Assembly (NCBI GenBank): GCA_037442885.1
Contig: JBBIPK010000009.1
Coordinates: forward strand, 4,249 to 68,248
DNA: 64,000 nucleotides
Reading direction: 5' to 3'
Origin: Acidobacteriota bacterium
GTDB taxonomy: Bacteria; Acidobacteriota; Terriglobia; Acidiferrales; 2-02-FULL-67-57
Part shown: positions 18,518-60,438 of the stretch, in pieces
Position numbering within the stretch: the stretch's first letter is position 1
Layout: every line of letters begins with the position of its first letter
The notes under the pieces: model-generated
The model's database searches: none
The model's input: the letters and a program-made list of their open reading frames with translations, nothing else
What the model was told of the DNA's origin: nothing
Position numbers and translations under genes: made by a program

Positions 18518-18563
18518 CGAGCGCCCATCATACTCAGCCGCTCGGAGGGGGACAAGCAAACCG

Positions 18564-19466
18564 CTAGGCGGCGGCTTCGAGCCCACGCGCGACGTCGGCC
18601 AGCTCTTGCTTGGCTTGCTCGTCCAGAGGGAGGAACGGGGGGCGCGCCGGCCCACCATAATACCCGCGTAGGTCCATTACGTACTTGATGCCCGGCACGC
18701 CATAGGTGGAAACAACAAGCTTGACCGCAGGGATCACCTTCTGCTGCAGCCCGCGTGCACGATCGTGATTCCCGCTGCAATATGCTTCGTAAAGAGCAGT
18801 AAAAACCTCCGGCCATGCACAAGCCGCCGCCAGCACTCCACCACGTGCACCCAGCGCCAGTGATGGATACAACGTCGTGGCTGAGCCCACTAGAACGGTA
18901 AACGTGTCTGGAGTGCTCGCGATCATCTGGGCGACACGCTCCACATTCCCCGAGCTTTCCTTAATCCCGAGGATGTTCGGATGCTCGGCGAGCCGGGCGA
19001 CCCAGGGCGCTTCCACAGCCAGGCCGGTGAATTGCGGCACGGAGTAAATCAACACAGGGATCGGGCTGGCATCGGCAACGGCGCGGAAGTGCCGTTCAAG
19101 GGCTGCCTCGTTCATCTGCGGCTTGAAGTAGTGCGGTGTCTTGACCAGAGCAACCGCGTACCCCAACTCTGCTGCCTGCCGCGTCAGGGCAATCGTCTCC
19201 CTGGTCGCTTCCATTCCCGTGCCCGCAATCAGGAGCTTGTTCCTGTCCGCCGCCTTCCGAACAGTCTCCCAAACCCGCAGCTTTTCCTCTTCCCGCAAGT
19301 ACACAGACTCGCCCGTCGAACCCACCACGACGTATCCGGCAAGTTGCGTCTGGTTATACTTCCGAACGTTTTCGGCCAGATGATCGAGCGCCACTGTGCC
19401 ATCGCGAGCGAAAGGCGTGGTGAGAGGCGGATAGATGCCGTGCAGCTTGGGCGCAGGGACACTCAT
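18564..19466 (-). CDS. DapA/HOGA-family class I aldolase (dihydrodipicolinate synthase family)
   Basis: 300 aa. Contains VVGSTGES, the Schiff-base lysine context ILGIKESSG, and YSVPQFTG. The start overlaps the carB stop. Confidence 0.8.
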
Positions 19467-29847: not shown

Positions 29848-31344
29848 TTACGGGTTCGTGTCAATCTGCGCCCGCTGCAAAGTACCGCTGAAGTCCACGT
29901 AGAGGCTCTTCCACTCGGAGAAGACGTCCAGGGCGGCCTGGCCGGCGTCCCGGTGCCCGTTGCCGGTTTGCTTGGTGCCTCCGAAGGGGAGCTGGATTTC
30001 CGCCCCAATGGTGGGCGCGTTGATGTAGACGATGCCGGTGTAGAGATCGCGCATGGCTGCGAAGGCCCGGTTCACATCGCGGGTATACAGAGCGGAGGAG
30101 AGGCCATAGACAACACCGTTGTTGATTTCGACTGCTTCCTCGAAGGTGTCAAATGGGATCACGGAAACAACGGGGCCGAAGATCTCTTCCTGAGAGATCC
30201 GCATCTTGGGGTCGCACTCACCGAAGATAGTGGGCGCATAGAAGGAGCCGTGCTCCCAGTCTCCGTCCGTCAGGGGATGCCCGCCGCACAAGAGACGCGC
30301 CCCTTCATCCTTCCCAATCTGCACATAGCTGTCCACTGTCTTGCGCTGGCTCTCGTTGATGCAAGGACCCATCTCCACGGTAGGATCCAGGCCGTTACCG
30401 ACCTTCAGGCTCTTCGCCCGGCGGACGAACTTCTCGGTGAATTCCTTGTACACCTTCTTGTGCACTGCGACGCGGCTTGCCGCCGTGCAGCGCTGCCCGG
30501 TCGTGCCGAAGCCGCCCCAGAGGGCGCCGTCCACCGCCAAGTCCAGGTCGGCGTCGTCCATCACGATGATCATGTTCTTGCCGCCCATCTCCAGGCTGCA
30601 ATGGCGGAAGTCCGGCGCGCAGGCTTCCGACACCATCCGCCCCACCTCGGTGGAACCCGTGAAGGAGATGACGCTGATGTCCTTGTGCTTCATGAGGGGC
30701 ACACCCACTGCGCCCCCCGAGCCGGTCACGAAGTTCAGCACTCCCTTGGGCAAACCTGCTTCGTTCAAGATCTTGACAAAATTCCAGCCCGAGAGCGGCG
30801 TATCGGTTGCCGGCTTGAAGACAACAGTATTTCCGCAGACGAGAGCGGGAAAAATCTTCCACGAGGGAATCGCCATGGGGAAATTCCAGGGGGTGATAAT
30901 TCCGCAGACACCGAGAGGCATCCGCACCGACATGGCAAACTTGTTGGGGAGCTCGGAGGGAACGGTGTGCCCGAACAGGCGGCGTCCCTCACCGGCCATG
31001 TAGAAGCCCATGTCAATGGCTTCCTGCACATCGCCGCGGGTTTCCTTGAGGATTTTCCCCATCTCGCGGGTCATGTCACGGGCCAATTCTTCTTTTCGCT
31101 CCACGAGCATTTGCGCGGCCCGATAGAGAATCTCGGCCCGTTTCGGGGCTGGCAGAAGCCGCCAGGAGCGGCAGGCCTCGCGCGCGGCTGCGATGGCGTC
31201 CTCGACGTCACACTTATCCGAGGCCTGGAATACTCCGATAACATCGCGGCGGTCAGCGGGGTTGGTGTTCTCAAAGGTTTTCCCGCACCGCGCCTCCACC
31301 CACTCACCGTTGATGAAATTCTTGTACACCTTGGGGGCTGCCAT
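29848..31344 (-). CDS. NAD(P)-dependent aldehyde dehydrogenase
   Basis: 498 aa. Contains [15 protein letters not shown] and the catalytic-Cys region GQRCTAASR. Confidence 0.9.
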
Positions 31345-40873: not shown

Positions 40874-42234
40874 GGCTCCACCCCGGTGAGGAGCAGCAGC
40901 GCCAGCAGGACGCGCTTGGTTCCCAACTCGCGATCCGTGGGGTCGTACCATTCGCGCAGCGAATGAGACGAGCCGCTGCGGCCGCCCCCGCTGACCGCGA
41001 CCGCTTCCATCCCCAGCGCGATCGGAACATTCGCGTCGGTGGAGGCGGTACGGAACTGCGTCTTGATGCCCAGGTGGTTATCCACGGCGCGGAAGACCTC
41101 GACAATGCGCGCCGATTCGGGGACCTCGCCACCGGGACGCTCGCCAATCGTCTTAATTTCAGCCTGGAGACTTTCCGAGCGCCGCGCCGCCTTGTTCTCG
41201 GCTTCTACGGCCCGCGCAACCGCCTGGCCGACTGCTTGTTCCAGCCGCGTGATTTCCTCCGCACCTTCCGAGCGGATGTCAATCTTCATCGCAGCCTGGT
41301 AGGGAATCGAGTTCACCGAGGTTCCCCCTTCGATGACACCCACGTTCAAGACCGTGCGGGGCTTTTCCGGGATGGAGACACCGGCCAGTTCGGTGATGGC
41401 ACGTGCCAGCGCTTGAATGGGGTTCGGCAGACCGAAGTCACCCCAGCTATGACCGCCCGGGCCGCGCACGGTCACCTCCAGGCGTTTGCTGCCCAGAGCC
41501 CGGCGGGTCAGGCGGTCGTTGCCCGAGCCGTCAATCGCGATTACGGCGCGCGTTTTCTGCCGAAGCTCGTTGTCATCCAGCAGATGCTTGATGCCGCGAA
41601 GATTTCCTTCGCCTTCCTCGCCCACATTGGCAACGAAGAGGATGCTGGCGGCTGTGGCCACCTTGGCCGTCCCGAGGGCACGGATCACCGCGAGCAACGT
41701 GGCCAAACCGTTGCCGTTGTCTGAAACGCCGGGACCCACGAGCCGCTTCCCTTCCCGCGCCACGCGCACCGGTGTTTCCGGAGGGAATACCGTGTCCAGA
41801 TGAGCGGCCAGGATGACCCAACTGTTCGCATCGCGGCCGCGGTATTCGCCGAGTACATTCCCGATGGCATCGATGCGCACGTGTTCCAGGCCCAGGTTGC
41901 GGAATTGGGCTTCGAGGTAGCGGGCCCGCTCGCCTTCTTGGAAGGGGGGAGCGGGGATTTCCGTCACCCGAATCTGTTCCGCCAGGGTCCAATCGGACAG
42001 GTCATCGGCAGCGCGCAGGGCGCGGGCGACGGCCGGGTGCTGGGCCAGCGCGGCGGGATTCATCTCAACTGTAGAGAGTCGGACAGGCATAAGCAGGGTA
42101 AGCAGGAACGCTGCAAGTAACGCGCAAGCTCTGCTCAAGGGTTTCGACCCAGAATCCCATCCCTCGTGTTTGCGCTCTAGGACGAACGCGCCACCTTGGG
42201 GCGTTCCGAAGGCACCGGGACGTCTTCGCCGCAC
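40870..42234 (-). CDS. secreted M20/M28-type metallopeptidase
   Basis: Contains AAHLDTVFP...GVSDNGNGLA...NVGEEGEGNLRG and a hydrophobic signal (ACALLAAFLLTLL). The start is uncertain (GTG 42234 or TTG 42138). Confidence 0.8.
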   Translation of the reverse strand: MRRRRPGAFGTPQGGAFVLERKHEGWDSGSKPLSRACALLAAFLLTLLMPVRLSTVEMNPAALAQHPAVARALRAADDLSDWTLAEQIRVTEIPAPPFQEGERARYLEAQFRNLGLEHVRIDAIGNVLGEYRGRDANSWVILAAHLDTVFPPETPVRVAREGKRLVGPGVSDNGNGLATLLAVIRALGTAKVATAASILFVANVGEEGEGNLRGIKHLLDDNELRQKTRAVIAIDGSGNDRLTRRALGSKRLEVTVRGPGGHSWGDFGLPNPIQALARAITELAGVSIPEKPRTVLNVGVIEGGTSVNSIPYQAAMKIDIRSEGAEEITRLEQAVGQAVARAVEAENKAARRSESLQAEIKTIGERPGGEVPESARIVEVFRAVDNHLGIKTQFRTASTDANVPIALGMEAVAVSGGGRSGSSHSLREWYDPTDRELGTKRVLLALLLLTGVEP

Positions 42235-43448
42235 AGCGCGTAGACTTCTTCCTCCGTCAGCAAACGGTCGGACTGCTTGGCGGCATTGAAGATTCGCTCC
42301 ACGCGCTCGTCGGTAGCCGGAATGCCCCGCTTCTCCAGCCAGTAAATCACGTTTGATTTCCCGCTCATGGGGCCGATTTCGATGACCTGGTCGAGTCCGA
42401 ACAGATGGGACGGGACACCGGAGTAGACGATGTTGGCCAGGTGGACATCGTTTTTCTTGTAGGCCTTGATGACAGCGGCGGCGTGGACGCCGGTGCCGGT
42501 GCGGAAGGCGTCGCTGCCGACGACGGGGTAGTTGCTGGGAATCGGGACTCCGGTCGCCTGGGAAACCTTCACGCAGTACTCGCGCAGTTTGGAGAGGTCG
42601 CGGTCAATCCAGCCGAGCAGTTTCAGGTTGACGAGCAACTGATCCATCGAGGCATTGCCCACGCGCTCGCCAATGGCCAGGGCGCAGCCGTGCACCTGGT
42701 CGGCACCGGCGGCAAGAGCCGCCAGGCTGTTGATGACGGCCAATCCCCGGTCGTTGTGCCCGTGCCAGTCCACGCGAACGGTGGCACCGCTGGGCTTGAT
42801 CACTTCGTCGAGCACGAACCGGACGAGGTTCTGCGCGCCGGCGGGCGTGGCGTGGCCGACGGTGTCGCACAAGACGATGGCCTGGGCGCCATGATTGATG
42901 GCGGTCGAATAGAGTTTCTTGACGGTCTGGGGGTCGCAGCGGTCCGTATCTTCGGTGACGTACATGACCGGCAGGCCAAGCGAGCGCGCGAAGGTGACGG
43001 CGAATTCCGTCTGTCGCAGCAGGAAGTCGGTTGTCCAATCTTCGGCGTAGCGGCGGATGGGGCTGGAGCCGATGAAGGTGGCCGCCTCGATGGCGATGCC
43101 CACGCGCTGGGAGATTTCGGCAATCGGGCGGATGTCAGCCTCGAGGGTGCGGGCGGCGCAATTGGGACGAATCTTGAGTTTGGCGGTGACGATTTCGCGC
43201 GCCAGCCGCTCGGCATCGGCCACCGCGCGCGGGCCGGCACCGGGGAGTCCGATGTTGACCGAATCGATTCCCAGCGCCTCCATCAGGTGGAGAATCTCGA
43301 TCTTCTCCCCGATGCTGGGATCGCGAACCGAAGGTGACTGCAAGCCGTCGCGCAGGGTTTCATCGTCGAGGAGGCAGCGGGCGGGACGCGGCAGAGACTC
43401 CACCCCGCCGGCGGTGTTCCAATCGTAAATGAGGCCTGGCTCCATCAC
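42177..43448 (-). CDS. DRE-TIM metallolyase (2-isopropylmalate/homocitrate synthase family) without a C-terminal regulatory domain
   Basis: 423 aa. Contains DETLRDGLQSP and HGHNDRGLAVINSLAALAAGA. It has no LeuA-dimer/allosteric domain. Confidence 0.75.
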   Translation of the reverse strand: MMEPGLIYDWNTAGGVESLPRPARCLLDDETLRDGLQSPSVRDPSIGEKIEILHLMEALGIDSVNIGLPGAGPRAVADAERLAREIVTAKLKIRPNCAARTLEADIRPIAEISQRVGIAIEAATFIGSSPIRRYAEDWTTDFLLRQTEFAVTFARSLGLPVMYVTEDTDRCDPQTVKKLYSTAINHGAQAIVLCDTVGHATPAGAQNLVRFVLDEVIKPSGATVRVDWHGHNDRGLAVINSLAALAAGADQVHGCALAIGERVGNASMDQLLVNLKLLGWIDRDLSKLREYCVKVSQATGVPIPSNYPVVGSDAFRTGTGVHAAAVIKAYKKNDVHLANIVYSGVPSHLFGLDQVIEIGPMSGKSNVIYWLEKRGIPATDERVERIFNAAKQSDRLLTEEEVYALCGEDVPVPSERPKVARSS

Positions 43449-49019: not shown

Positions 49020-49048
49020 TTGACCTCTCTCGAGCCATGCCCTATGAT
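49020..49048 (+). promoter_or_regulatory. candidate promoter, TTGACC-N17-TATGAT, for the mutase operon
   Basis: TTGACC at 49020..49025, a 17-nt spacer, then TATGAT at 49043..49048. The icmA ATG is at 49087. Confidence 0.5.
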
Positions 49049-49086: not shown

Positions 49087-50793
<1,707 letters not shown>

Positions 50794-50830
50794 CCAAGAG
50801 ACTCACCGCAGAGGCACAGAGAACACAGAG

Positions 50831-51229
50831 ATGGCGAAGAAGAAGATACGGGTGGTGATTGCCAAGCCTGGGCTCGACGGCCACGACCGCGGCGCCAAGG
50901 TTATCGCCCGTGCTCTGCGCGACGCTGGCATGGAAGTCATCTACACCGGCCTCCGCCAGACCCCCGAGCAAATCGCCAGCGCCGCCCTGCAGGAGGACGT
51001 CGACGTCATCGGCCTCTCGATTCTTTCCGGCGCGCATCTAGTCATCGTCAACCGTCTGATGGAGCTGCTGCGCGAAAACAAGCTTGCCGACGACGTCCTC
51101 GTCCTCGTGGGAGGCATTATTCCGAGTGAGGACATCCCGGTTCTGAAACAGGCCGGCGTCGCCGAAGTCTTCCAGCCGGGCACGCCGACCCAGGCCATCA
51201 TCGAGTTCATCCGCACGCGCGCCAAGTAA
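50831..51229 (+). CDS. icmB: acyl-CoA mutase small subunit (B12-binding domain)
   Basis: From ATG 50831 the sequence reads [29 protein letters not shown]..., with the DxHxxG cobalamin-binding motif, over about 132 aa. The upstream extension in the track ORF overlaps icmA out of frame. Confidence 0.9.
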
Positions 51230-51234
51230 CCGCC

Positions 51235-51870
51235 GTGCCTTCTACCCTCCGCCTGCACCGGGCCGGCCCCATCGCTCGCATCGAACTCCTCCCCCTGGGC
51301 GACTTTCCTCGCCTCTCGACGCCTGCCCTAGCCGAATTGGAAGCCACCTTGCTCGCCCTCTGGCGCGACGCCTCTTGCACCGGTATTGTCATCCACGGCA
51401 ACGACCAGGCTTTCGCCGTCGGCGCCGAGATCGCCGAAGTCATCGCTCTCACTCCTCTCAATGCCCTGCCCTTCGCCCGCCGCGGCCAGCAGCTCTTTGA
51501 CTCGCTGGCCGCCTCGCCCAAACCCATCGTGGCCGCCATCCACGGCTATTGCCTCGGCGGAGGCTTCGACCTGGCGCTCGCCTGCCACCGTCGCCTGGCC
51601 TCCCCGGCGGCCGTCTTCGGCCATCCCAGTAGCTCGCTCGGCCTCGTCACCGGCTGGGGTGCCACGCAGCGCCTGCCGGGACTCGTGGGAAAGAGCCGTG
51701 CCCTGGAACTGCTTCTCTCTTCTGACAGAATCACTGCCGCGCAGGCCCACAGTATCGGACTCGTCGACCTTCTCGTGCCAGCCGAGCAACTCTTGCCCGC
51801 CGCCATCGCGGAAGCCCGGCGGCTCAAGAGCTCCCCGATTCCCTTGACCCCCGACGCCCTCTTGGACTAA
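51235..51870 (+). CDS. crotonase-superfamily protein, short, with a non-canonical active site
   Basis: 211 aa with a GTG start. The oxyanion region is AFAVGAEI...GYCLGGGFDLALAC. FGHPSSSLG replaces the first catalytic Glu, while ALELLLSSDRI keeps the second. Confidence 0.8.
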   Translation: MPSTLRLHRAGPIARIELLPLGDFPRLSTPALAELEATLLALWRDASCTGIVIHGNDQAFAVGAEIAEVIALTPLNALPFARRGQQLFDSLAASPKPIVAAIHGYCLGGGFDLALACHRRLASPAAVFGHPSSSLGLVTGWGATQRLPGLVGKSRALELLLSSDRITAAQAHSIGLVDLLVPAEQLLPAAIAEARRLKSSPIPLTPDALLD

Positions 51871-51885
51871 CTTGGCCTTCCTTTC

Positions 51886-53040
51886 ATGGGGTCCCGCGTC
51901 GCCATCATCGGCCTCGGCTTCACGCCGGCCCGCCCTACTTCATCCCATCAGTCCTACAAGGAGATGATGTTTGAGGCGGCGCAGCGCGCCTACGCTGACG
52001 CCGGCATCGAAGCCGCCGACGTCCAATCCTTCGTCACCTGCGCCGAAGACCTGAACGAAGGTCTAAGCATCTTCGACGAGTACACGCCCGACCAGCTCGG
52101 CGCCATGCTCAAGCCCATGCACACGCTCACCCAGGATGGTCTGCACGGCCTCGCCGACGCCGCCCTGCAGATTCTCTCCGGGCTCTTCGAACTCGTTGTC
52201 GTCGAAGCCCATAGCAAGGCTTCCAACATCGTCGCCCCCGACTGGATCGCCGACTACGCCACCGACCCGGTCCTCAACCGTCCCCTCGGCCTCAACCCGC
52301 ACTACATCGCCGGACTCGAGATGCAGCGCTTCCTCCACGAAAGTGGCGTGAAGCACGAGCAGTGTGCGCACGTCGCCGCCAAAAATCGCCGCCACGCCCT
52401 CCGCAACCCCGCTGCCGCCTACCCGGCACATCTGGAAGCGAAAGACGTGCTGGCTTCCCCGCCTGCCTTCGAGCCGCTGCATGAAAAGGAAATCGCGCGC
52501 ACCGCCGACGGCTGCATCGTCCTGGTGGTAGCTGGTGAAGACCGGGCGCACCGCAGTGCCGCCAAACCTGTTTGGGTGCGCGGCGTGGGCTGGGCCAACG
52601 GCTCCTTCGCCCTCGAATCCCGCAACTGGGCGCACCCGGACTACGTCCGCCGCGCTGCTGAAATCGCCTACCGGCAAGCCGGCATCCACGACCCCGCCCG
52701 CGAAATTCAACTCTTGGAAGTGGACGACACCTACGCCTACAAGGAATTGCAGCACCTCGAAGCCCTGCGCGTCTTCCCGAACGCTGCCGATGCTGCCCGC
52801 GCTACCGAGCGTGGCGAGACGCAGCAGGGCGCGCGGCTGCCCGTGAACGTCTCCGGCGGCGTGCTCGGCATGGGCAACTTGCTTGAAGCCAATGGCCTCG
52901 CGCGCGTCGCCGAACTCGTTCTGCAGCTCCGCGGCCAATCAGGGGCACGCCAAGTCGAAGGCGCGCGCGTCGGCCTCGCCCAATCCTGGCGCGGCGTACC
53001 CACGACCAGCGCCGCCGTCGCAATTCTGGGCCTGGAGTGA
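51886..53040 (+). CDS. thiolase-fold (SCP2-thiolase-like) protein lacking catalytic Cys/His
   Basis: 384 aa. TQDG replaces C[AS]SG, VDDTY replaces HDCF, and NVSGGVLGMGNLLEANG replaces NxSGG..GHPxGAxG. Confidence 0.8.
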   Translation: MGSRVAIIGLGFTPARPTSSHQSYKEMMFEAAQRAYADAGIEAADVQSFVTCAEDLNEGLSIFDEYTPDQLGAMLKPMHTLTQDGLHGLADAALQILSGLFELVVVEAHSKASNIVAPDWIADYATDPVLNRPLGLNPHYIAGLEMQRFLHESGVKHEQCAHVAAKNRRHALRNPAAAYPAHLEAKDVLASPPAFEPLHEKEIARTADGCIVLVVAGEDRAHRSAAKPVWVRGVGWANGSFALESRNWAHPDYVRRAAEIAYRQAGIHDPAREIQLLEVDDTYAYKELQHLEALRVFPNAADAARATERGETQQGARLPVNVSGGVLGMGNLLEANGLARVAELVLQLRGQSGARQVEGARVGLAQSWRGVPTTSAAVAILGLE

Positions 53041-54206
53041 AGATGGGATATCGGAAGGTAGCCATCGTCGGCGCGGGCATGACCAAATTCGTGCGCCGGG
53101 CACTGGAAACTCCGCGCGAGCTTTCTTGGCTCGCCGCCAAAGCCGCCCTCGATTCAGCCGAGATGAAGCTCGACCAGGTTGACTCCGTCGTCTTCGGCTC
53201 CGCCCCCGACGCCTTCGACGGCCTGCACATGAAGGGCGAATTCGTTGCCGATGGCTGCGGCGCTTGGGGCAAGCCCTACCTGCGCTGCTACGTCGGCGGC
53301 GGCACCGGCGTCTATGCCATCGCCCAGGGCTGGCTGCACGTCGCCTCGGGCCTCTTCGATACCTGCCTGGTGGTCTGCGAAGAAAAAATGTCCACCTGCC
53401 AGCCCCACCCCCAAGGCGCCTTCCTCACCATCTTCGACAATTTCACCGAGCAGCCGCTCAAGCCCAACCTCCTCTGGATCTTTGCGCTCGAGCAGAACCG
53501 CTACATGCAGGTGCACGGCATCACCCTCGAGGAAATCGCCCGCGTCTCCGTCAAGAACAAGCGCAACGCCCTCGGCCATCCCTGCGCGCAGCTCGGCGCG
53601 GAACTCACGGTAGAAGATGTGCTCAAGAGCGAAGTGATGGCCTGGCCGGTGCATCGCTTGATGGTGAGCCCCACCAGCGACGGCGCCGCCGCCGTCGTTC
53701 TTGCCGCCGAGCACGTCGCCCGCCGGGTCACCAACAAGCCGGTCTGGATCGAAGGTGTGGGCTGGTGCCTCGACACCGCCTACTGGACCAACCGCGACCT
53801 CTACTACCCCCGCTACGTCGAGCGCGCCGCCCGCATGGCCTACGAGATGGCCGGCATCCGCGAGCCGCGCAAGGAAATCAACATCGCCGAGCCGTACGAC
53901 CCCTTCGCCTACAAAGAACTTCACCACCTCGAAGGCCTGCAACTCGCCCCCAAAGGTCAGGCGGCCAAGTTGCTCGCCGACGGCGTCTTCGACCGCGACG
54001 GTGACCTGCCCGCCACCCCTTCGGGCGGACTGCTCGGCGTCGGCAATCCCATCGCCGCTGCCGGCACGATGAAGATTTGCGAGCTGTTCTGGCAACTGCG
54101 CGGTGAGGCGGGCGCGCGCCAGGTCCCCGGCAAGCCCCGCCGCGGCGTGGCGCAGGCTTGGGGCGACTTGATGCAAGTCGGAACGGTTGTGGTGGTGGGA
54201 GTCTAG
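53037..54206 (+). CDS. thiolase-fold (SCP2-thiolase-like) protein lacking catalytic Cys/His, paralogue of the preceding gene
   Basis: 389 aa. The start is GTG 53037 (GTGA overlap) or ATG 53043 (GGAG 5 nt upstream). VGGGTG sits at the nucleophile position, PYDPF replaces HDCF, and TPSGGLLGVGNPIAAAG has His->Asn. Confidence 0.8.
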   Translation: MKMGYRKVAIVGAGMTKFVRRALETPRELSWLAAKAALDSAEMKLDQVDSVVFGSAPDAFDGLHMKGEFVADGCGAWGKPYLRCYVGGGTGVYAIAQGWLHVASGLFDTCLVVCEEKMSTCQPHPQGAFLTIFDNFTEQPLKPNLLWIFALEQNRYMQVHGITLEEIARVSVKNKRNALGHPCAQLGAELTVEDVLKSEVMAWPVHRLMVSPTSDGAAAVVLAAEHVARRVTNKPVWIEGVGWCLDTAYWTNRDLYYPRYVERAARMAYEMAGIREPRKEINIAEPYDPFAYKELHHLEGLQLAPKGQAAKLLADGVFDRDGDLPATPSGGLLGVGNPIAAAGTMKICELFWQLRGEAGARQVPGKPRRGVAQAWGDLMQVGTVVVVGV

Positions 54207-54758
54207 ATGGAAGGCCAGCCGAAAAATCCGCGCGGCACTTCGCTCTCGAGCGACGACATCAAGCGCGGGCGAACCTTCCTCCTCCCCTACACGCCGCGGC
54301 TTGAGTACGCCTGGGACTGCGGCGAAGCCATCACGCGCTATCTCGAGGAACTTAAGAATGGGCGGCTCGTCGCCCGCACCTGCCATCGCTGCCAGCGCAC
54401 CCTGCTCCCTCCGCGCATGTTCTGCGAAGTCTGCTTCCGGCCGACGGATGACTGGGTGTTCGTAAAAGATACCGGCACGGTGAACACCTTCTCGCTTTGC
54501 TACGTCACCTGGGACGTCCGGAAGCTACGCAAACCCGAGATTCCCGCCGTCATCGAGATGGACGGTGCCTCGCCCGGCATGGGCATCATGCACCTGCTGG
54601 GTGGCGTGGACCCGAAAAAAGTTCGCGTCGGCATGCGCGTGCGGGCAGTCTGGAAGCCCCCGACCGAGCGCACCGGCAGCATCACCGACATCCTCTACTT
54701 CGCGCCGCTCAAAGGCAACGGGACCGCGGCACGGCGGAAGCGGAAGGGGAAGCGATGA
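54207..54758 (+). CDS. DUF35 zinc-ribbon/OB-fold acyl-CoA-associated protein
   Basis: 183 aa. CHRC...CEVC ribbon followed by an OB-fold region. The ATG abuts the upstream TAG. Confidence 0.8.
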   Translation: MEGQPKNPRGTSLSSDDIKRGRTFLLPYTPRLEYAWDCGEAITRYLEELKNGRLVARTCHRCQRTLLPPRMFCEVCFRPTDDWVFVKDTGTVNTFSLCYVTWDVRKLRKPEIPAVIEMDGASPGMGIMHLLGGVDPKKVRVGMRVRAVWKPPTERTGSITDILYFAPLKGNGTAARRKRKGKR

Positions 54759-55207
54759 GCAACTCGGCTGAAGCACCGCGTACTTGGCGGGGCAACATCC
54801 CGGTGACCTCGCTCTACACCGCCGGCGTCGGCGGCACGCTCTTTTTCCGCGCGCTGAAGGAACGGGGAGAGCTTCTCGCCTCGCCCTGCCCCGCATGTAA
54901 GGTTTCCTATTTCCCGGCGCAACAGTTTTGCCCCCACTGCTTGGCTGAACTGACAGAGACGAAACCGGTCCCGCCGGATGGAGAAGTCTCGAGCTTCACC
55001 CGTGTGCATCTCGACCGCGATGGCGCGCGGCTGCCCGTGCCGGTTACGGTTGTCGCCGCAAAGCTCGACGGCACCGACACCGTCCTTGTCCATTACTGGC
55101 TGGGCAAGGAACCGCCACGCATCGGCACCCGCACGCGCGTGCGCATCAAACCCAAGGCGAAACGCGTCGGCTCCATCCTCGACATCGAAGGATTTGTGCC
55201 AGCCTGA
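54755..55207 (+). CDS. DUF35 zinc-ribbon/OB-fold acyl-CoA-associated protein (second copy)
   Basis: From ATG 54755 (ATGA overlap): MSNSAEAPRTW...CPAC...CPHC followed by an OB-fold, about 150 aa. Confidence 0.8.
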   Translation: MSNSAEAPRTWRGNIPVTSLYTAGVGGTLFFRALKERGELLASPCPACKVSYFPAQQFCPHCLAELTETKPVPPDGEVSSFTRVHLDRDGARLPVPVTVVAAKLDGTDTVLVHYWLGKEPPRIGTRTRVRIKPKAKRVGSILDIEGFVPA

Positions 55208-55239: not shown

Positions 55240-58200
55240 GTGATGACTCGACTCCGTCTTTATCCCATCCTTCTGGTCGCAGCGTTCCTGCTGCCGGCCG
55301 CTATCCGACCCATGCCGGCGGCGGAGGAACCTGCGACGCCCGTCGAGGAGAAGAAAGAAGAGGCCAAGAAGGAAGAGCCCAAGCGGCCCGAACTCGGCCC
55401 CCTGCGTAAGATTGAGTTCACCACCGACGAAGGCACTTGGATGTCGGTGGACATCTCGCCCGATGGCAAGACCATTGTCTTCGACCTGCTCGGCGACATC
55501 TACACGATGCCGGCCACCGGCGGCGAGGCCCGCCGCATCCACGCCGGCACCGCCTTCGACCATCAGCCGCGCTTCTCCCCCGATGGCAAGCGCATCGCCT
55601 TCATCAGCGACCGCGACGGCAACGAGAACCTCTGGATCTCGGACGCCGACGGCTCCAATCCCAAGCAGCTCACCAAAGAAAAAGATTTCTACCTCGGCTC
55701 GCCCACCTGGACCCCGGATGGCCGCTACTTGGTCGTGCGCAAACAGGACACCAAACCCGCCGGCATCCCGCCCGTCGAACTCTGGCTCTACCACGTCGAA
55801 GGCGGCACGGGTGTGCAACTGGTCAAGAAAGACCAGTACCACACCGTCAGCGGCGCCACCGTGCATCCCGCCGGCCGCTACATTTTCTTCTCTGCCCGCC
55901 GCCCCTCGTTTTCCTATTTGCCGGATATGAGCAGTGGCCTCTGGCACCTCTATCGCCTCGACCGCGAGAACGGCGAGATTACCCGGATGACGACCGGCTA
56001 CGGCGGCGGCATCCGGCCCCTCGTTTCCCCCGACGGTAACTGGCTGGCCTACGCCCGCCGCGTGGATGCGGCGACCACCCTGCGCCTGCGCGACCTCCGC
56101 ACCGGCGCCGAACGCGTCCTCGCCCGCGCCATCACCCGCGATGAGCAGGAAGGCTTCGCCGAGCAGGACGTCTTCCCCGGCTACGCCTTCACGCCCGATG
56201 GCTCCGCCATCCTCCTCTGCAATGGGGGAAAGATTCAGCGCATTGATGTGGCCAGTGGGAAAGCCGACGTGATTCCCTTCACCGCCAAAGTCGAACAGGA
56301 GGTGGCGGAACAAGTCTATCCGCCGCTGCGGGTCGAGGAAGGTGAGCTGCGCGTCCGCATCATTCGCTGGCCCACGCTCTCCCCCGACGGCCGGACGCTG
56401 GCCTTTTCCGCGCTCGGCAAACTCTGGGCCATGACCCTGCCGAATGGAAAACCCCAGCGGCTCACCACCGACGTCCACCGCGAGTACGCGCCCGCCTTCT
56501 CGCCCGATGGACGCTGGATTGCCTACGTCTCCTGGTCGGACGAAGAGGGCGGCCACGTCTGGAAAGTGCCTGCCACCGGGGGCAGCCCACAGCGCTTGAC
56601 CCTACGTCCGGCGCGTTATACCAATCCCGCCTGGTCGCGCCAGGGCGACCGCCTCGCCGTCATCATGGGCAGTGGCGCCGAATTCCGCGGCCAGCAGCCT
56701 GAAGACGACCCCTACCTCGAAGTCCGCTGGCTGCCGGCCTCCGGCGGCGAAACTCACCTGGTCATGCCCATTCGCCCGAGCAACGGCTTGCGCTACTTCC
56801 CCGCCCTCACCTTCAGCCGAGATGGCGAACGTCTCTACTTCACCCAACCGGCTCCACCCCCCAAGCCCGATGACCCGCCCAAGACCGACCTCATCTCGGT
56901 CAAACTCGACGGGACAGACAAGAAGTCGCTGCTGCGCTTCAGCCCGCAGGATGAGGTCGTTCCCTCCCCCGATGAAACCCAGGCCGCCTTCGTCAGTGGC
57001 GACAACGTCTTTGTGGTCCCGCTGCCGGGCGTTCAGTTCCAAACCGTGGACATCGCCCTCGAGAAGGGCGCGCTGCCGGTCAAACGCCTGACCACGGAGG
57101 GCGGCGGCTTCGTCGCCTGGGCCGACAACCAGACCCTCACCTGGGGCTTCACCAACAAGTTCTTCCGCCAGCGGCTTGATCAGGAAAAGCCGGAGACGTT
57201 TGAGATTGACCTGCGCGTGCCGCGCGCCCGGCCTACCGGCAAGCTCGTGCTCCGCAACGCCAAGCTCGTCACCATGAAGGGCGAGGAAATCATCCCGCGC
57301 GGCGACATCGTGATCGAGGACAACCGCATCACCGCCGTCGGCCCGAGCGGCAAAGTCACCCTGCCGAAGGACGCCGCCACCTACGACCTGCGCGGCAAAA
57401 CCATCATCCCGGGCCTCGTCGACACGCACGCGCACATGCACTATTCCGCCTTCGAAATCTTTCCGGAGAAGAAGTGGCAGTATGTGGCCAACCTCGCCTA
57501 CGGCGTGACCACAACCCGCGATGTGTCGGCCCCCAGCCTCGACGTTTTCGGGCAGGGCGAAATGGTGGAGACGGGCGACCTCCTGGGCCCACGGATTCAT
57601 TCCACCGGCCACGTCATCTACGGCGGCAACCGCATCGCCCAGTTCACCCCCATCAACAGCATCGAAGACGCCCGGCGCGTCGTCCGCCGCTACAAAGCCT
57701 ACGGCGCTACCTCGCTCAAGGAATACCAGCAGATGCGGCGCGAATCCCGCCAATGGCTGGCCCAGGCCGCGCGCGAGGAAAAAATCTTCCTCACTGCCGA
57801 AGGTGGCGGCGACCTCAAGCTCGACCTCACCTTCGCCATTGATGGCTACAGTGGCTTCGAGCACTCCCTGCCCATCACGCCGCTCTACCGCGACACGACC
57901 GAGTTCGTCGCCCAGACGAAGATCTACTACACCCCTACGCTCATCGTCTCCTACGGCGGCCCCACCGCCGAGCACTGGTTCTACAACAAGGCCAACCCCC
58001 ATGACGACGCCAAGCTCCGCCGTTTCACCCCGCACGGCGAGCTTGACCCGCTCGGCCGCCGCCGCATTACCTATCCCGACGACGAATACAACTTCCCCGC
58101 CGTGTCTCGCGGCGCCACCGACATTGCCCGCCGCGGCGGCAACGTCTGCCTGGGCGCACACGGGCAAGTCCAGGGTCTGGGCGCGCACTGGGAGCTCTGG

Positions 58201-58479
58201 GCGCTGGAGATGGGCGGAATGACCGCGCACGAGGCGCTCCGCAGCGCCACCCTCCGCGGTGCCGAGGCCATGGGCCTCGCGCAAAACTTGGGCTCCATCG
58301 AAGTTGGCAAGCTCGCTGACCTGATCGTGCTCAACTCCGATCCGCTCGCCAACCTCCGCACCTCCACCGACATCGCCTACGTCCTCATCAACGGTAACCT
58401 CTACGACGCCACCACGATGGACCAGCTCTGGCCGGTGAAGAAGCCGCTGGGCAAATTCTTCTGGCAGAAAGACGAGTAG
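55240..58479 (+). CDS. secreted PD40/TolB-like beta-propeller plus amidohydrolase fusion protein
   Basis: 1079 aa with a signal peptide and a KE-rich linker. PD40 repeats are present (ISPDGKTIVF, FSPDGKRIAF, WTPDGRY, VSPDGNWLAY, FSPDGRWIAY). The C-terminal amidohydrolase domain has PGLVDTHAHMH and ADLIVLNSDP. The start is GTG 55240 or ATG 55243. Confidence 0.85.
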   Translation: MMTRLRLYPILLVAAFLLPAAIRPMPAAEEPATPVEEKKEEAKKEEPKRPELGPLRKIEFTTDEGTWMSVDISPDGKTIVFDLLGDIYTMPATGGEARRIHAGTAFDHQPRFSPDGKRIAFISDRDGNENLWISDADGSNPKQLTKEKDFYLGSPTWTPDGRYLVVRKQDTKPAGIPPVELWLYHVEGGTGVQLVKKDQYHTVSGATVHPAGRYIFFSARRPSFSYLPDMSSGLWHLYRLDRENGEITRMTTGYGGGIRPLVSPDGNWLAYARRVDAATTLRLRDLRTGAERVLARAITRDEQEGFAEQDVFPGYAFTPDGSAILLCNGGKIQRIDVASGKADVIPFTAKVEQEVAEQVYPPLRVEEGELRVRIIRWPTLSPDGRTLAFSALGKLWAMTLPNGKPQRLTTDVHREYAPAFSPDGRWIAYVSWSDEEGGHVWKVPATGGSPQRLTLRPARYTNPAWSRQGDRLAVIMGSGAEFRGQQPEDDPYLEVRWLPASGGETHLVMPIRPSNGLRYFPALTFSRDGERLYFTQPAPPPKPDDPPKTDLISVKLDGTDKKSLLRFSPQDEVVPSPDETQAAFVSGDNVFVVPLPGVQFQTVDIALEKGALPVKRLTTEGGGFVAWADNQTLTWGFTNKFFRQRLDQEKPETFEIDLRVPRARPTGKLVLRNAKLVTMKGEEIIPRGDIVIEDNRITAVGPSGKVTLPKDAATYDLRGKTIIPGLVDTHAHMHYSAFEIFPEKKWQYVANLAYGVTTTRDVSAPSLDVFGQGEMVETGDLLGPRIHSTGHVIYGGNRIAQFTPINSIEDARRVVRRYKAYGATSLKEYQQMRRESRQWLAQAAREEKIFLTAEGGGDLKLDLTFAIDGYSGFEHSLPITPLYRDTTEFVAQTKIYYTPTLIVSYGGPTAEHWFYNKANPHDDAKLRRFTPHGELDPLGRRRITYPDDEYNFPAVSRGATDIARRGGNVCLGAHGQVQGLGAHWELWALEMGGMTAHEALRSATLRGAEAMGLAQNLGSIEVGKLADLIVLNSDPLANLRTSTDIAYVLINGNLYDATTMDQLWPVKKPLGKFFWQKDE

Positions 58480-58489
58480 ACGCAGCCGC

Positions 58490-58897
58490 ATGCCCACCCC
58501 CGTCGAGACCACCCTGCGCGTGCGCTACGCCGAGACCGACCGCATGGGCGTCGCCTACTACGCCAATCACTTCGTCTGGTTCGAGGTGGGTCGGGTAGAA
58601 TGGTTCCGCCAGCACGGCTTCGTCTACAAGGAAATGGAAGAGCAGGATGGCGCCTACATCATCGTGGCCGAGGCGCGCTGCAGCTACAAAGCCCCCGTCC
58701 GCTACGATGACCTGATCATTATTCGCACCTGGTTGCAGGAAGCGCGCACGCGGACCCTGGTATTTGCCTACGAGATTCTCCGCCAGCTCGACCGCGCGCT
58801 GCTCGCCACCGGCGAAACCACCCACGTCATCACCGACCGCGACGGCCGCCCCCGCACGCTGCCCGACCGCTACCGCGCCCTCTTCAGCCTCACATGA
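58490..58897 (+). CDS. 4HBT/YbgC-family acyl-CoA thioesterase
   Basis: 135 aa. VRYAETDRMGVAYYANHFVWFEVGRVEWFR is a hotdog-fold YbgC/FadM signature. Confidence 0.85.
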   Translation: MPTPVETTLRVRYAETDRMGVAYYANHFVWFEVGRVEWFRQHGFVYKEMEEQDGAYIIVAEARCSYKAPVRYDDLIIIRTWLQEARTRTLVFAYEILRQLDRALLATGETTHVITDRDGRPRTLPDRYRALFSLT

Positions 58898-60438
58898 GGA
58901 AAGCAATGACCGTTGAGTTGACCGGAAGCAGCCTTACAGTTGAACAGTTTCGGGCTGTCGTCTTTGACGGAGCCGCGTGCCGCCTAGGCGCCCGCGCCCG
59001 CCGCGCGGTGGAGCGCTCGCGCCGCACCATCGAACAGTTCGTCGCCCACGATGCCGTCGTCTACGGCGTGACGACGGGCTTCGGGGAACTGGCTAGCGTC
59101 AAAATCTCTCGCAATCAACTCCGCGACCTGCAGCTCAACCTCCTGCGCAGCCACGCCGCCGGCATGGGCGAGCCCCTGACCGAGGCCGAAACGCGCGCCA
59201 CGCTGCTCCTCCGCGCCAATGTGCTGGCCAAGGGATACTCCGGGGTGCGACCGGCCGTCATTGACCTGCTTTGCGAGCTGCTGAACCGCTGCGTGCATCC
59301 CGTCATCCCCGCGCGCGGCTCGGTAGGAGCGAGCGGCGACCTGGCGCCGCTCTCGCATCTCGCGCTGGTGCTCGTGGGCGAGGGCGAGGCTATCGTCGAA
59401 GGCACCCGCCTGCCGGGTGCCAAGGCGCTCGCACAATCCGGCCTGAAGCCCCTGCGCCCGGAAGCCAAGGAAGGCCTCGCGCTCATCAACGGCACACAAC
59501 CTTCCCTGGCGGTCGGATTGCTCACCCTGCTCGATGCCGAAACCCTCGCCGACACCGCCGACGTGGCTGCCGCCTTGACCCTTGATGCCCTGCGCGGCAC
59601 GCCCACCGCCTTTGACGCCCGCATCCACGACTTGCGTCCCTTTCCCGGACAGAAAAAGAGCGCGCGCAACCTCTTGCGGTTGAATCAGGGAAGCGAAATC
59701 CGCGAGTCGCACCGTTCGCCGGCCAAGGACCCCCGTGTGCAGGACGCCTACAGCCTGCGCTGCACCCCCCAGGTGCACGGAACGGTGCGCGATGCGCTGG
59801 CCCACGCCCGCCGCGTGCTCACCATCGAGATGAACAGCGGCACCGACAATCCGCTGGTCTTCGGCAAAGAAGTTCTCTCCGGCGGCAACTTCCACGGCCA
59901 GCCGGTGTCGCTGGCGATGGATCTGGTGGCCATCGCGCTGGCCCAGTTGGGCGGCATCAGCGAGCGGCGTGTCGAGCGGCTCGTCAATCCCGCGCTCAGC
60001 GGCCTGCCGGCATTTCTCACCAAGCAGGCCGGGTTGAATTCCGGCTTCATGATGGCGCAGGTGACCGCAGCGGCGTTGGCGTCCGAGAACAAAGCCCTGG
60101 CGCACCCGGCTTCGGTGGACTCCATCCCGACTTCGGGACAGGAAGACTTCGTCAGCATGAGTATGGGCGCGGCCTTGAAGGCACGGCAGGTGGCCGATAA
60201 CGTCAAGACCATTCTGGCGGTGGAGTTGCTCTGCGCCTGTCAAGGGATTGACTTGCTCGCCCCGCTGAAGACCGGCCGCCTGGCTCAGCGCGCTGTGCAA
60301 GCCGTACGCCGCACGGTCCCCAAACTCGACGCCGACCGCCCCCTCACCCCCGACATCGAGGCTGCCCGCCAGCTCATCTCCGCGCGAACTTTTCAGAAAC
60401 TCGTCTCCCGCTCCAATCAAGTAGTCAGCAGTAAGTAG
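58894..60438 (+). CDS. hutH: histidine ammonia-lyase (MIO enzyme)
   Basis: Contains the MIO triad in GSVGASGDLAPLSHLA. NLLRSHAAG carries the Ser-His selectivity pair of HALs, not the FL/HL pair of PAL/TAL. ATG 58894 overlaps the upstream stop (ATGA); ATG 58906 has a GAGGA SD. Confidence 0.92.
   Translation: MRKAMTVELTGSSLTVEQFRAVVFDGAACRLGARARRAVERSRRTIEQFVAHDAVVYGVTTGFGELASVKISRNQLRDLQLNLLRSHAAGMGEPLTEAETRATLLLRANVLAKGYSGVRPAVIDLLCELLNRCVHPVIPARGSVGASGDLAPLSHLALVLVGEGEAIVEGTRLPGAKALAQSGLKPLRPEAKEGLALINGTQPSLAVGLLTLLDAETLADTADVAAALTLDALRGTPTAFDARIHDLRPFPGQKKSARNLLRLNQGSEIRESHRSPAKDPRVQDAYSLRCTPQVHGTVRDALAHARRVLTIEMNSGTDNPLVFGKEVLSGGNFHGQPVSLAMDLVAIALAQLGGISERRVERLVNPALSGLPAFLTKQAGLNSGFMMAQVTAAALASENKALAHPASVDSIPTSGQEDFVSMSMGAALKARQVADNVKTILAVELLCACQGIDLLAPLKTGRLAQRAVQAVRRTVPKLDADRPLTPDIEAARQLISARTFQKLVSRSNQVVSSK

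Follow-up and report, generated by a model that had tools for sequence, protein, structure and literature searches.

A conserved module of four genes, thlA-thlB-dufA-dufB, encodes two thiolase-fold proteins and two DUF35 proteins in a 64,000-nucleotide stretch of DNA from an Acidobacteriota bacterium (contig JBBIPK010000009.1; the whole stretch is hereafter the window). By analogy with known systems, the module is most likely a heteromeric variant of the DUF35-dependent thiolase-fold lyases. Its sequence features lead us to propose, tentatively and at rather less than even confidence, that it is an aldolase-type carbon-carbon (C-C) lyase or condensing enzyme acting on a short acyl-CoA, in which ThlA and ThlB would form a heteromer with the DUF35 proteins and ThlB would be the catalytic subunit. 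The first-pass annotation of the window had suggested a heteromeric, non-thiolytic complex in which both thiolase-fold proteins are catalytically dead and the chemistry is coupled to a hydratase. The heteromeric, non-thiolytic core of that suggestion fits the evidence presented here (fixed gene order, tight gene coupling, a natural fusion, no conserved Cys and the Tyr of a YDxF motif), but the dead-paralogue and hydratase-coupled parts do not.

ThlB has a thiolase fold without the thiolase catalytic residues

ThlB matches both Thiolase_N and Thiolase_C_1 of Pfam, as well as the NCBIfam model PRK06065 (639 bits, above the cutoff of 455). We read residue states from HMMER alignments to solved thiolases, including 7yvy and the zebrafish SCP2 thiolase. 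VGGGTG of ThlB lies opposite AACASG of 7yvy, placing Gly86 where the nucleophilic Cys would be, and EPYDPF lies opposite ELHDCF of the zebrafish enzyme and EVHDAF of 7yvy. GVGNPIAAAG lies opposite SKGHPLGATG, so that the GHP motif reads GNP. The same three substitutions had been called by eye in the first-pass annotation, and the alignments uphold them. Compared with the SCP2/archaeal thiolases (EC 2.3.1.9/2.3.1.16/2.3.1.176), ThlB has the fold, but the nucleophilic Cys, the His and Cys of the HDCF/HDAF motif and the His of GHP are all absent.

Gly86 and YDPF are each present in 81 of 81 ThlB sequences, and 166 of the 387 residues are invariant across phyla. The invariant positions include G85-G86, E113-E114-K115-M116-S117, H122, Y285-D-P-F, G334-N335-P336 and the C-terminal AQAWGDLMQ. 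Since they include the active-site-equivalent positions, ThlB is probably a catalytic subunit rather than a dead protein. To describe the pair as two dead paralogues was therefore misleading: ThlB is among the most constrained proteins of the region, and it is ThlA that looks degenerate. Not one Cys column of ThlB is invariant. A Cys in the motif RCYV (Cys82) had been flagged as needing a real alignment, and we rejected it as a shifted nucleophile, as its column holds Ser in 31, Cys in 28 and Gly in 11 of the 81 sequences, and Asn and Thr also occur. With Gly at the nucleophile site and not a single conserved Cys in its family, ThlB cannot form an acyl-cysteine intermediate.

An AlphaFold2 (AF2) model of ThlB built from a deep alignment reached a pLDDT of 95.6 and a pTM of 0.95; an earlier run, on sequences at least 79% identical, gave a pLDDT of 63.7 with disordered active-site loops and was set aside. 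The top Foldseek match in the PDB was the archaeal acetoacetyl-CoA thiolase of the thiolase/HMG-CoA synthase (HMGCS)/DUF35 complex (6et9/6esq; TM-score 0.94, rmsd 1.8 Å), and further matches were to the P. furiosus thiolase, SCP2 thiolases, ST0096, BbsB and PhlC. TM-scores to Cys-less proteins were 0.85 for TbSLP, 0.86 for Sal and 0.83 for Ltp2. A DUF35 partner is common to many of these structural neighbours (the archaeal thiolase, BbsB, PhlC, MucABC, Sal and Ltp2).

At the HDCF position, SCP2 thiolases have HDCF, the trypanosomal SLP has YDCF, CtSal has YDCY and TcLtp2 has YDHF (PMC12329534). Ltp2 and Sal have Gly instead of the nucleophilic Cys; during retro-aldol cleavage their Tyr has been proven to act as the catalytic base, removing the proton of the beta-hydroxyl group, and a second catalytic position 50 residues downstream is occupied by Tyr344 in Ltp2 and Gln352 in Sal (PMC12329534). 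ThlB carries part of this signature, namely Gly at the nucleophile site and Tyr as the first residue of the HDCF-equivalent motif. The spacing of Tyr285 and Asn335 in ThlB is also 50 residues, as for Tyr294/Tyr344 in Ltp2 and Tyr302/Gln352 in Sal. The equivalence of Tyr285 to the Ltp2/Sal Tyr is transitive, through the HDCF alignment and the motif statements in PMC12329534, and in a PDB search with the C-terminal half of ThlB as query the Sal/Ltp2 entries 9myr and 6ok1 ranked only 7 and 17.

ThlA and the DUF35 proteins are predicted partners of ThlB

ThlA matches Thiolase_C_1 of Pfam, Thiolase_N being found in ThlB only. Its best NCBIfam match, PRK06066, scores 434 bits against a cutoff of 516, and both proteins match PRK08313 as a secondary hit. 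EVDDTY of ThlA lies opposite ELHDCF, and GMGNLLEANG opposite SKGHPLGATG (GHP reads GNL). The residue equivalent to the nucleophile depends on where a three-residue gap is placed, being Gly85 in the MAFFT alignment and Thr82 without the gap; neither column holds Cys. The DDTY motif and the missing Cys were thus called correctly in the first-pass annotation, but its choice of Thr82 hinges on gap placement. Only 57 of 384 ThlA residues are invariant, and the GHP position varies across the family between His, Leu, Asn, Asp and Tyr, with His in 36 of 74 sequences. Replacement of this His by Asn had been reported for both paralogues; it is true of ThlA and ThlB from the window but is not a trait of the ThlA family. 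ThlA looks like a degenerate protein, and we predict that it is a non-catalytic partner.

The two DUF35 open reading frames (ORFs) with Cys ribbons recognised in the first reading are genuine family members. DufA and DufB both contain zf-ChsH2 (PF12172) and OB_ChsH2_C (PF01796) domains above the Pfam gathering scores, and the four zinc-ribbon Cys residues are retained in 60-72 of the 65-73 aligned sequences per family (window sequence counted). Invariant residues number 32 of 183 in DufA and 13 of 150 in DufB. We also found a natural single-chain fusion of thlB, dufA and dufB in which the gene order is kept (731 amino acids, 27 members, the P0123 family); its dufB-like unit has a degenerate zinc ribbon. 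Gene adjacency and this fusion suggest that the DUF35 proteins are physical partners of the thiolase-like proteins.

DUF35 proteins mediate the assembly of multi-enzyme complexes in Archaea and in steroid degraders, and with all canonical catalytic residues lost the module could be a non-catalytic scaffold or pseudoenzyme complex that organises or regulates acyl-CoA enzymes, with DUF35 as a molecular staple. We consider this very unlikely, given the extreme conservation of ThlB at active-site-equivalent positions (G86, YDPF, GNP and EEKMS) and the fact that no constant enzymatic partner gene accompanies the module.

The four-gene module is ancient and constant in gene order

When one genome per GTDB species was scanned by pattern, 359 relatives of thlB were identified, and the best 80 (72-91% identical) were examined as genome loci (loci are given here with the prefix L). 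The order thlA-thlB-dufA-dufB is found in all 80 loci wherever the contig permits. These loci represent at least 12 phyla. Carriers include Acidobacteriota, Binatia, Deltaproteobacteria/Syntrophobacteraceae, Anaerolineae and other Chloroflexota, Planctomycetota, Verrucomicrobiia, Armatimonadetes, Elusimicrobia, Symbiobacterium, Syntrophomonadaceae, Latescibacteria and one Bathyarchaeia metagenome-assembled genome (MAG). Minimum and median identities to the window protein were 72% and 75% for ThlB, 47% and 56% for ThlA, 45% and 56% for DufA, and 31% and 40% for DufB. A synteny search had been proposed as a check on the first-pass annotation; it returned a constant four-gene order, with the mutase and crotonase genes present in some loci only. 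Recurrence of the module across the 359 species genomes is far beyond chance, and the four genes form an ancient, invariant set.

In a library clustered at 50% identity the ThlB family collapsed to essentially one full-length representative (67% identical), and the next full-length relatives were only 45%, 42% and 40% identical. An alignment of 99 relatives revealed a broad radiation of Cys-less thiolase-like proteins. ThlB is related to a class with the motifs TGGxTG, Y-x-[PA]-F and x-[STA]-N-P, and ThlA falls in a class with DD[TLK][FY]; the alignment also contains further degenerate classes and the canonical class (C, HD[CA]F and GHP). Public records name both ThlA and ThlB acetyl-CoA acetyltransferase, a name at odds with the missing Cys. 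NCBIfam already lists the pair under PRK06066/PRK06065 'thiolase domain-containing protein', models that carry no function. Literature searches on the ThlA/ThlB family, on DUF35 together with isobutyryl-CoA mutase and on the product names used by NCBI returned no paper on the family in the library searched, and no homologue more than 60% identical was found on any of the plasmids of cultured organisms that were searched.

Some loci have insertions within or near the module. In L081-L084 (11751-13237) an NmeDI-like restriction endonuclease gene and a 107-amino-acid ORF are inserted between dufA and dufB, and the module is immediately preceded by genes of the futalosine pathway (VitK2_biosynth, radical SAM CofH_C). 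L050 and L075 have a small GxxExxY-type gene (cluster 24, ~142 amino acids) between thlA and thlB, and the same gene family occurs upstream of the crotonase gene in L003 and L012.

A proposed reaction for ThlB

If the module is an aldolase-type lyase, ThlA and ThlB would form a heterodimer with one DUF35 protein docked on each subunit, mirroring the DUF35-aldolase-aldolase-DUF35 arrangement of Sal/Ltp2. ThlB would act on the enolate of an acyl-CoA thioester and not on an acyl-cysteine, with Tyr285 of YDPF as the general base on the beta-hydroxyl group and with Asn335 and backbone amides stabilising the thioester enolate. A beta-hydroxyacyl-CoA would be cleaved to an aldehyde or ketone and acetyl-CoA (retro-aldol), or the reverse aldol addition would take place; the role of ThlA and of both DUF35 proteins would be to form the active-site surroundings and the surface that binds CoA. 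We infer a small substrate, at the C4-C5 level or with an aryl-C3 unit; in this Terriglobia-like genome it would be supplied by a pathway in which the isobutyryl-CoA-type mutase encoded upstream takes part. No 3-hydroxyacyl-CoA dehydrogenase gene lies next to the module in the Pfam-annotated loci, which fits cleavage at the hydroxyacyl level.

Several observations weigh against this proposal. The general acid of Ltp2/Sal (Tyr344 or Cys304) has no counterpart in ThlB, where the corresponding sites are Asn335 and Pro287, and both the sequence and the fold of ThlB are nearer to those of true archaeal thiolases than to those of Ltp2/Sal. Tyr285 may be convergent and serve another role. Most module operons have no hydratase gene, and the crotonase encoded in the window has neither catalytic Glu. 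The gene contexts described below disagree on the substrate, with an aryl-acrylyl-CoA suggested by ammonia-lyase and ligase genes versus the C4 level suggested by isobutyryl-CoA mutase and acyl-CoA dehydrogenase genes, CoA-transferases and the homogentisate pathway, and many Anaerolineae loci give no hint of a substrate.

The same residues could be read as those of a decarboxylase of malonyl-, methylmalonyl- or ethylmalonyl-CoA, in which Tyr and Asn would form an oxyanion hole that stabilises the enolate, much as in the decarboxylation half-reactions of KAS III, CHS and KSQ enzymes or in the weak activity of TbSLP. The GNP motif is reminiscent of the Asn in enzymes with a Cys-His-Asn set (FabH/CHS families), and the neighbouring mutase and the crotonase without its catalytic Glu residues belong to families whose substrates are branched or carboxylated acyl-CoAs. 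TbSLP (YDCF, no nucleophile Cys), a structural neighbour of ThlB, slowly decarboxylates malonyl-CoA, but with a very low kcat of 0.005 s-1, and CtSal lacks this activity (PMC12329534). Moreover, neither a carboxylase nor a mutase of the methylmalonyl-CoA (MCM) or ethylmalonyl-CoA (ECM) type is linked to the module, every linked mutase having the isobutyryl-CoA mutase (ICM) signature. Decarboxylation is accordingly, in our estimate, a highly improbable function.

In some lineages the module is linked to genes for mutases of the isobutyryl-CoA type

In the window, the module is preceded by the genes icmA and icmB for a split B12-dependent mutase. IcmA matches MM_CoA_mutase of Pfam at 773 bits and has the signature Phe98 (RQFSGF), Gln216 (IAQKEY) and Ala125; the corresponding residues are Tyr/Arg in MCM and Ile90/Asp117 in HcmA. 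We take ICM to be defined by the exchange of Tyr89 and Arg207 of MCM for Phe and Gln. IcmB matches the B12-binding domain of Pfam and TIGR00640 (173 bits, cutoff 57), with DGHDRG as its DxHxxG motif. From the signature residues, the mutase of the window is predicted to be of the isobutyryl-CoA mutase type. HcmA is the best PDB hit, but a 2-hydroxyisobutyryl-CoA mutase (HCM) identity was rejected as Ile90 and Asp117 are absent.

An ICM-type mutase is encoded near the module in 12 of the 80 loci (from Acidobacteria, Xenobia, Verrucomicrobia, Binatia, Deltaproteobacteria, Armatimonadetes and Bathyarchaeia), and all 12 share the Phe/Ala/Gln signature. The link to a B12 mutase noted in the first-pass annotation is thus real, and the mutase is of the ICM type, but the link is confined to some lineages. 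The mutase genes either precede the module on its own strand or follow it on the other, and this varied placement suggests functional coupling rather than shared ancestry. MeaB and a short-chain acyl-CoA dehydrogenase (ACAD) often accompany the linked mutase. Two adjacent genes for mutase large subunits occur in L020 (13713-17174); one has the Phe/Ala/Gln signature of ICM and the other has Val/Thr/Gln, which suggests that the latter may have a different substrate.

Other gene contexts point to short acyl-CoA metabolism

A short-chain ACAD gene is found near the module in 17 loci, and CoA ligase, CoA-transferase and thioesterase genes also occur. Short acyl-CoA metabolism is the common denominator of the contexts. 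In 11 loci from Binatia, Deltaproteobacteria, Verrucomicrobia and Acidobacteria the module is the end of a six-gene operon that starts with genes for an ammonia-lyase with a 4-methylideneimidazole-5-one (MIO) group and a CoA ligase. The MIO lyase has the Phe-Leu selectivity pair of phenylalanine ammonia-lyase (PAL) or a variant pair and scores below all NCBIfam cutoffs, and the ligase is of a generic fatty-acyl type. In two unrelated lineages (L088, 1901-8988, and L013, 1800-8549) the homogentisate genes HPPD-HgmA-FAH lie directly upstream of this operon, with MAAI in L088 only; gaps in L088 are 8-13 nt. The products of the homogentisate pathway are fumarate and acetoacetate.

The six-gene operon suggests that the module could be a hydratase-lyase or lyase for CoA esters of aryl-acrylates (cinnamoyl-, coumaroyl- or urocanoyl-CoA to an aryl aldehyde and acetyl-CoA), that is, a thiolase-fold analogue of the crotonase hydroxycinnamoyl-CoA hydratase-lyase (HCHL) and a substrate-specific form of the aldolase-type lyase proposed above. 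Such a function would also suit the MIO enzyme of the histidine ammonia-lyase (HAL) type encoded after the module in the window, L004, L006 and L007, and the nearby genes of aromatic amino-acid catabolism (the homogentisate pathway and indoleamine 2,3-dioxygenase, IDO). Against this, ~55 loci, mainly from Chloroflexota, have no nearby MIO lyase although their thlB is still 73-78% identical; the lyase of the window scores as an ordinary hutH in NCBIfam, and its gene has no ligase gene next to it; the operon ligase is generic; and the ICM/ACAD link is left unexplained. We regard a restriction to aryl-acrylyl-CoA substrates as rather improbable.

The homogentisate genes, with acetoacetate as end product, instead favour cleavage of acetoacetyl-CoA or another short 3-oxoacyl-CoA independently of Cys, in which CoA (thiolysis in a ternary complex) or water (C-C hydrolysis) would attack the beta-keto carbon in ThlB at the end of acetoacetate or acetoacetyl-CoA pathways. 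CoA-transferase A/B genes adjoin the module in five Anaerolineae or Armatimonadetes loci, ICM and short-chain ACAD lead to C4 acyl-CoAs, and the best fold match of ThlB is itself an acetoacetyl-CoA thiolase. The two DUF35 proteins could provide two CoA sites, as the archaeal DUF35 protein contributes a shared CoA site. This reaction is unlikely, in our view: no thiolase-fold enzyme is known to carry it out without a Cys nucleophile, the substrate-polarising His residues are lost as well, a canonical thiolase gene (cluster 20) is nearby in five loci, and the MIO lyase gene between the FAH and ligase genes would be unexplained. The aldolase-type lyase is the reading that we retain in what follows.

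In Anaerolineae the module follows tatC, and some loci there also have nearby genes for an ACAD, a CitE/HpcH-like lyase, a P-loop protein of unknown function or a CoA-transferase A/B pair. After the module, a YbgC thioesterase gene and then a hutH-type lyase gene are shared by the window, L004, L006 and L007; whether these two genes belong to the system is uncertain. The window ammonia-lyase scores 680 bits against TIGR01225 (cutoff 539), and its gene overlaps the ybgC stop codon. It has a Ser-His pair and passes the hutH cutoff, and we rejected an identity as PAL or tyrosine ammonia-lyase (TAL). Neither urocanase nor imidazolonepropionase was found among the large window ORFs that were checked. 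No MaoC or steroid genes were detected in the window or in 91 loci, the two DUF35 proteins of the window stand alone, and Pfam detected no HMGCS domain in the window operon or the loci. E2/E3 genes upstream of the module in some Binatia loci were considered as a branched-chain 2-oxoacid dehydrogenase (BCKDH); by eye, a single ORF of 850-917 amino acids before E2 makes a pyruvate-dehydrogenase-type enzyme more likely.

Further neighbours were seen in single groups of loci. L011, L013 and L014 have an IDO family gene (Pfam IDO, 368 bits; cluster 34) on the opposite strand, several kb past the module, and in L011 and L014 it is located between the module and opposite-strand ICM/MeaB/ACAD genes. 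Between dufB and ybgC, the window alone has a gene (55240-58479) for a 1079-amino-acid fusion of a TolB-like PD40 beta-propeller and an amidohydrolase; L004 and L007 have a gene for a small secreted Dabb-like protein in its place. Elsewhere in the window, not adjoining the module, are genes for a BshC-like protein of bacillithiol synthesis (16892-18658, minus strand), an HMGL-like protein of the IPMS/HMG-CoA-lyase family (42177-43448, minus strand) and an aldehyde dehydrogenase (29848-31344, minus strand).

The adjacent crotonase lacks both catalytic Glu residues

The protein encoded directly upstream of thlA matches ECH_1 of Pfam (124.7 bits, cutoff 27). The match covers only positions 21-194 of the 251 in the profile, and the protein lacks the helical part at the C-terminus. 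GGGFDLALACH lies opposite GGGCELAMACH, so that the first catalytic Glu (GGGxELA) is Asp, and FGHPSSSLG lies opposite FGLPEVSLG, so that the second (PE) is Ser. The first-pass annotation was right that the protein is short, but it misassigned the catalytic Glu residues: the Glu of ALELLL is not catalytic, and both have been lost rather than one. Six acidobacterial orthologues, 200-215 amino acids long, have the same two substitutions. As the protein is truncated, lacks both Glu residues and is encoded with the module only in close acidobacterial relatives, the hydratase-coupled chemistry suggested for the adjacent crotonase appears doubtful.

Layout of the window locus

The seven same-strand genes icmA, icmB, crotonase, thlA, thlB, dufA and dufB span 49087-55207 (Table 1). 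The G+C content of the window is ~61-67%, and its nearest relatives are Terriglobia (Acidobacteriota) MAGs. All ORFs of the first-pass annotation were recovered at the same coordinates. Intergenic gaps are 34 nt (icmA-icmB), 5 nt (icmB-crotonase) and 15 nt (crotonase-thlA). The thlA stop codon TGA (53038-53040) is overlapped by a GTG at 53037 (GTGA), and the ATG at 53043, 2 nt past the stop, is the start of a 100%-identical database protein of 387 amino acids. The GTGA overlap given previously as the thlA-thlB junction therefore exists, but the database twin starts thlB at the ATG; the abutting TAG/ATG junction of thlB and dufA and the ATGA overlap of dufA and dufB were confirmed as described. 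A sigma-70-like promoter match upstream of icmA is a possible start of the transcription unit, but as two such sites were found against 1.1 expected by chance, it is weak evidence. A sequence scan, likewise weak evidence, found no convincing plus-strand terminator within the icmA-dufB unit. Long antisense ORFs across thlA and thlB, such as 53154-54386 (minus strand, 410 amino acids), are the usual artefacts of high-GC DNA.

Table 1. Features of the icmA-dufB unit and of two genes downstream of it (positions in the window).
Feature	Position	Strand	Description
Promoter-like site	49020..49048	+	Sigma-70-like match TTGACC-17-TATGAT, 10/12 positions, 38 nt upstream of icmA
icmA	49087..50793	+	Large subunit of split B12-dependent acyl-CoA mutase, predicted isobutyryl-CoA-mutase type
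icmB	50828..51229	+	B12-binding small subunit
crotonase	51235..51870	+	Short crotonase-fold protein, 211 aa
thlA	51886..53040	+	SCP2/archaeal-type thiolase-fold paralogue, degenerate; predicted non-catalytic partner
thlB	53043..54206	+	Cys-less thiolase-fold protein; predicted catalytic subunit; alternative GTG start 53037
thlB Gly86 codon	53298..53300	+	Site of thiolase nucleophile Cys, by alignment to 7yvy
thlB Tyr285-Asp-Pro-Phe	53895..53906	+	Site of SCP2-thiolase HDCF motif
thlB Asn335 codon	54045..54047	+	Replaces His of GHP
dufA	54207..54758	+	DUF35 protein, Cys4 zinc ribbon and OB fold, 183 aa
dufB	54755..55207	+	Second DUF35 protein, Cys4 zinc ribbon and OB fold, 150 aa, faster-evolving
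ybgC	58490..58897	+	YbgC/4HBT-type acyl-CoA thioesterase; recurs near module in Acidobacteria (L004, L006, L007, L023, L024)
hutH-type	58894..60438	+	Histidine ammonia-lyase, MIO enzyme, Ser-His type; after ybgC downstream of module

Significance

Thousands of metagenomic members of these families are annotated as acetyl-CoA acetyltransferases although they cannot form an acyl-cysteine. Metabolic reconstructions of Acidobacteriota, Binatia, Anaerolineae and others thus credit these organisms with a thiolase step that is probably not performed. If the module is an aldolase-type lyase acting on a small acyl-CoA, the retro-aldol chemistry of thiolase-fold/DUF35 enzymes would extend from specialised steroid catabolism to widespread core metabolism, and the module would be a new biocatalyst for C-C bond formation. 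Through its recurrent link to isobutyryl-CoA mutase, the module gives a testable entry point to isobutyrate and butyrate metabolism in uncultured soil and sediment bacteria.

A bolder version, for which we see only a slim chance, is that the module is a central-metabolic enzyme of many uncultured, mostly anaerobic phyla, making or breaking a C2-C2 bond at the C4 level without an acyl-cysteine. It would interconvert 3-hydroxybutyryl-CoA with acetaldehyde and acetyl-CoA, or direct CoA or water to acetoacetyl-CoA. Were this true, butyrate/isobutyrate and ketone-body-type metabolism would have a route around both 3-hydroxyacyl-CoA dehydrogenase and the Claisen thiolase step, which is thermodynamically unfavourable.

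Comparison with known systems

The best fold match of ThlB belongs to the archaeal thiolase/HMGCS/DUF35 complex, in which, as in the Sulfolobus ketothiolase/DUF35 complex of fatty-acid synthesis (alpha2beta2), thiolase-superfamily enzymes are joined by DUF35. Unlike ThlB, the archaeal enzymes keep the nucleophilic Cys and the His residues and carry out Claisen chemistry through an acyl-enzyme. The archaeal complexes also have an HMGCS partner instead of a second SCP2-type paralogue, and only one kind of DUF35 protein. The C-acyltransferases PhlABC and MucABC resemble the window module in combining two different thiolase-superfamily subunits with DUF35. However, PhlC has Cys88 (9skm is the C88S mutant), PhlA is KAS III-like, there is one DUF35 subunit and the reaction is the acylation of aromatic polyketides, whereas the window module has no catalytic Cys and both of its subunits are of the SCP2/archaeal type.

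Ltp2-ChsH2 (Thermomonospora curvata and M. tuberculosis) and Sal-Shy (Comamonas testosteroni) share with ThlB the SCP2-type fold and the replacement of Cys by Gly. They also have Tyr for the His of HDCF (YDHF and YDCY, compared with YDPF in ThlB), and the His of GHP is replaced (Tyr and Gln, compared with Asn) at the same 50-residue spacing. These aldolases depend on a DUF35 partner, as ThlB is predicted to do. In contrast to the heteromer that we infer here, their core is homodimeric; DUF35 is fused to a MaoC hydratase, the substrates are steroids, the general acid is Tyr344 or Cys304 where ThlB has Asn335 and Pro287, and sequence similarity is only ~24%. A stand-alone DUF35 protein, ChsH4, works with the thiolase-like aldolase Atf1 according to genetic evidence.

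The closest composition is found in actinobacterial clusters of the ltp3/ltp4 type (with an EchA19-like crotonase and FadD19), which, as in the window, comprise a crotonase, two Cys-less thiolase-fold paralogues (one with Tyr...Asn and one degenerate) and two DUF35 units. On a plasmid of Streptomyces sp. NBC_00184 (L093, 3197-7167), genes encode an EchA19-like crotonase, a 313-amino-acid double-DUF35 protein, a PRK07937 'lipid-transfer protein' and a PRK08313 protein, the last two of which we take to be Ltp4 and Ltp3, respectively. A divergently transcribed acyl-CoA synthetase gene adjoins this cluster. A Rhodococcus cluster has the order ACAD-ACAD-MaoC-MaoC-truncated thiolase-like-Tyr/Asn thiolase-like-DUF35. 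In these two cultured Actinobacteria, distant Cys-less relatives of the Tyr...Asn class are encoded beside hydratases in clusters of a lyase (aldolase) type, a point in favour of the aldolase-type reading. The ltp3/ltp4-type clusters differ from the module in identity (~35%), in gene order, in their fused DUF35 units, in a crotonase that keeps both Glu residues, in their context of sterol catabolism and in being limited to Actinobacteria. PMC6273163 describes Ltp3 and Ltp4, from their genetic role, as aldol-lyases essential for the degradation of C24-branched sterol side chains; the literature library searched held no biochemical work on them. The view that no characterised system has this composition was therefore too strong, as the ltp3/ltp4-type clusters have the same composition and are genetically characterised. 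Judged by its gene content, the Streptomyces cluster is a putative culturable analogue of the window module.

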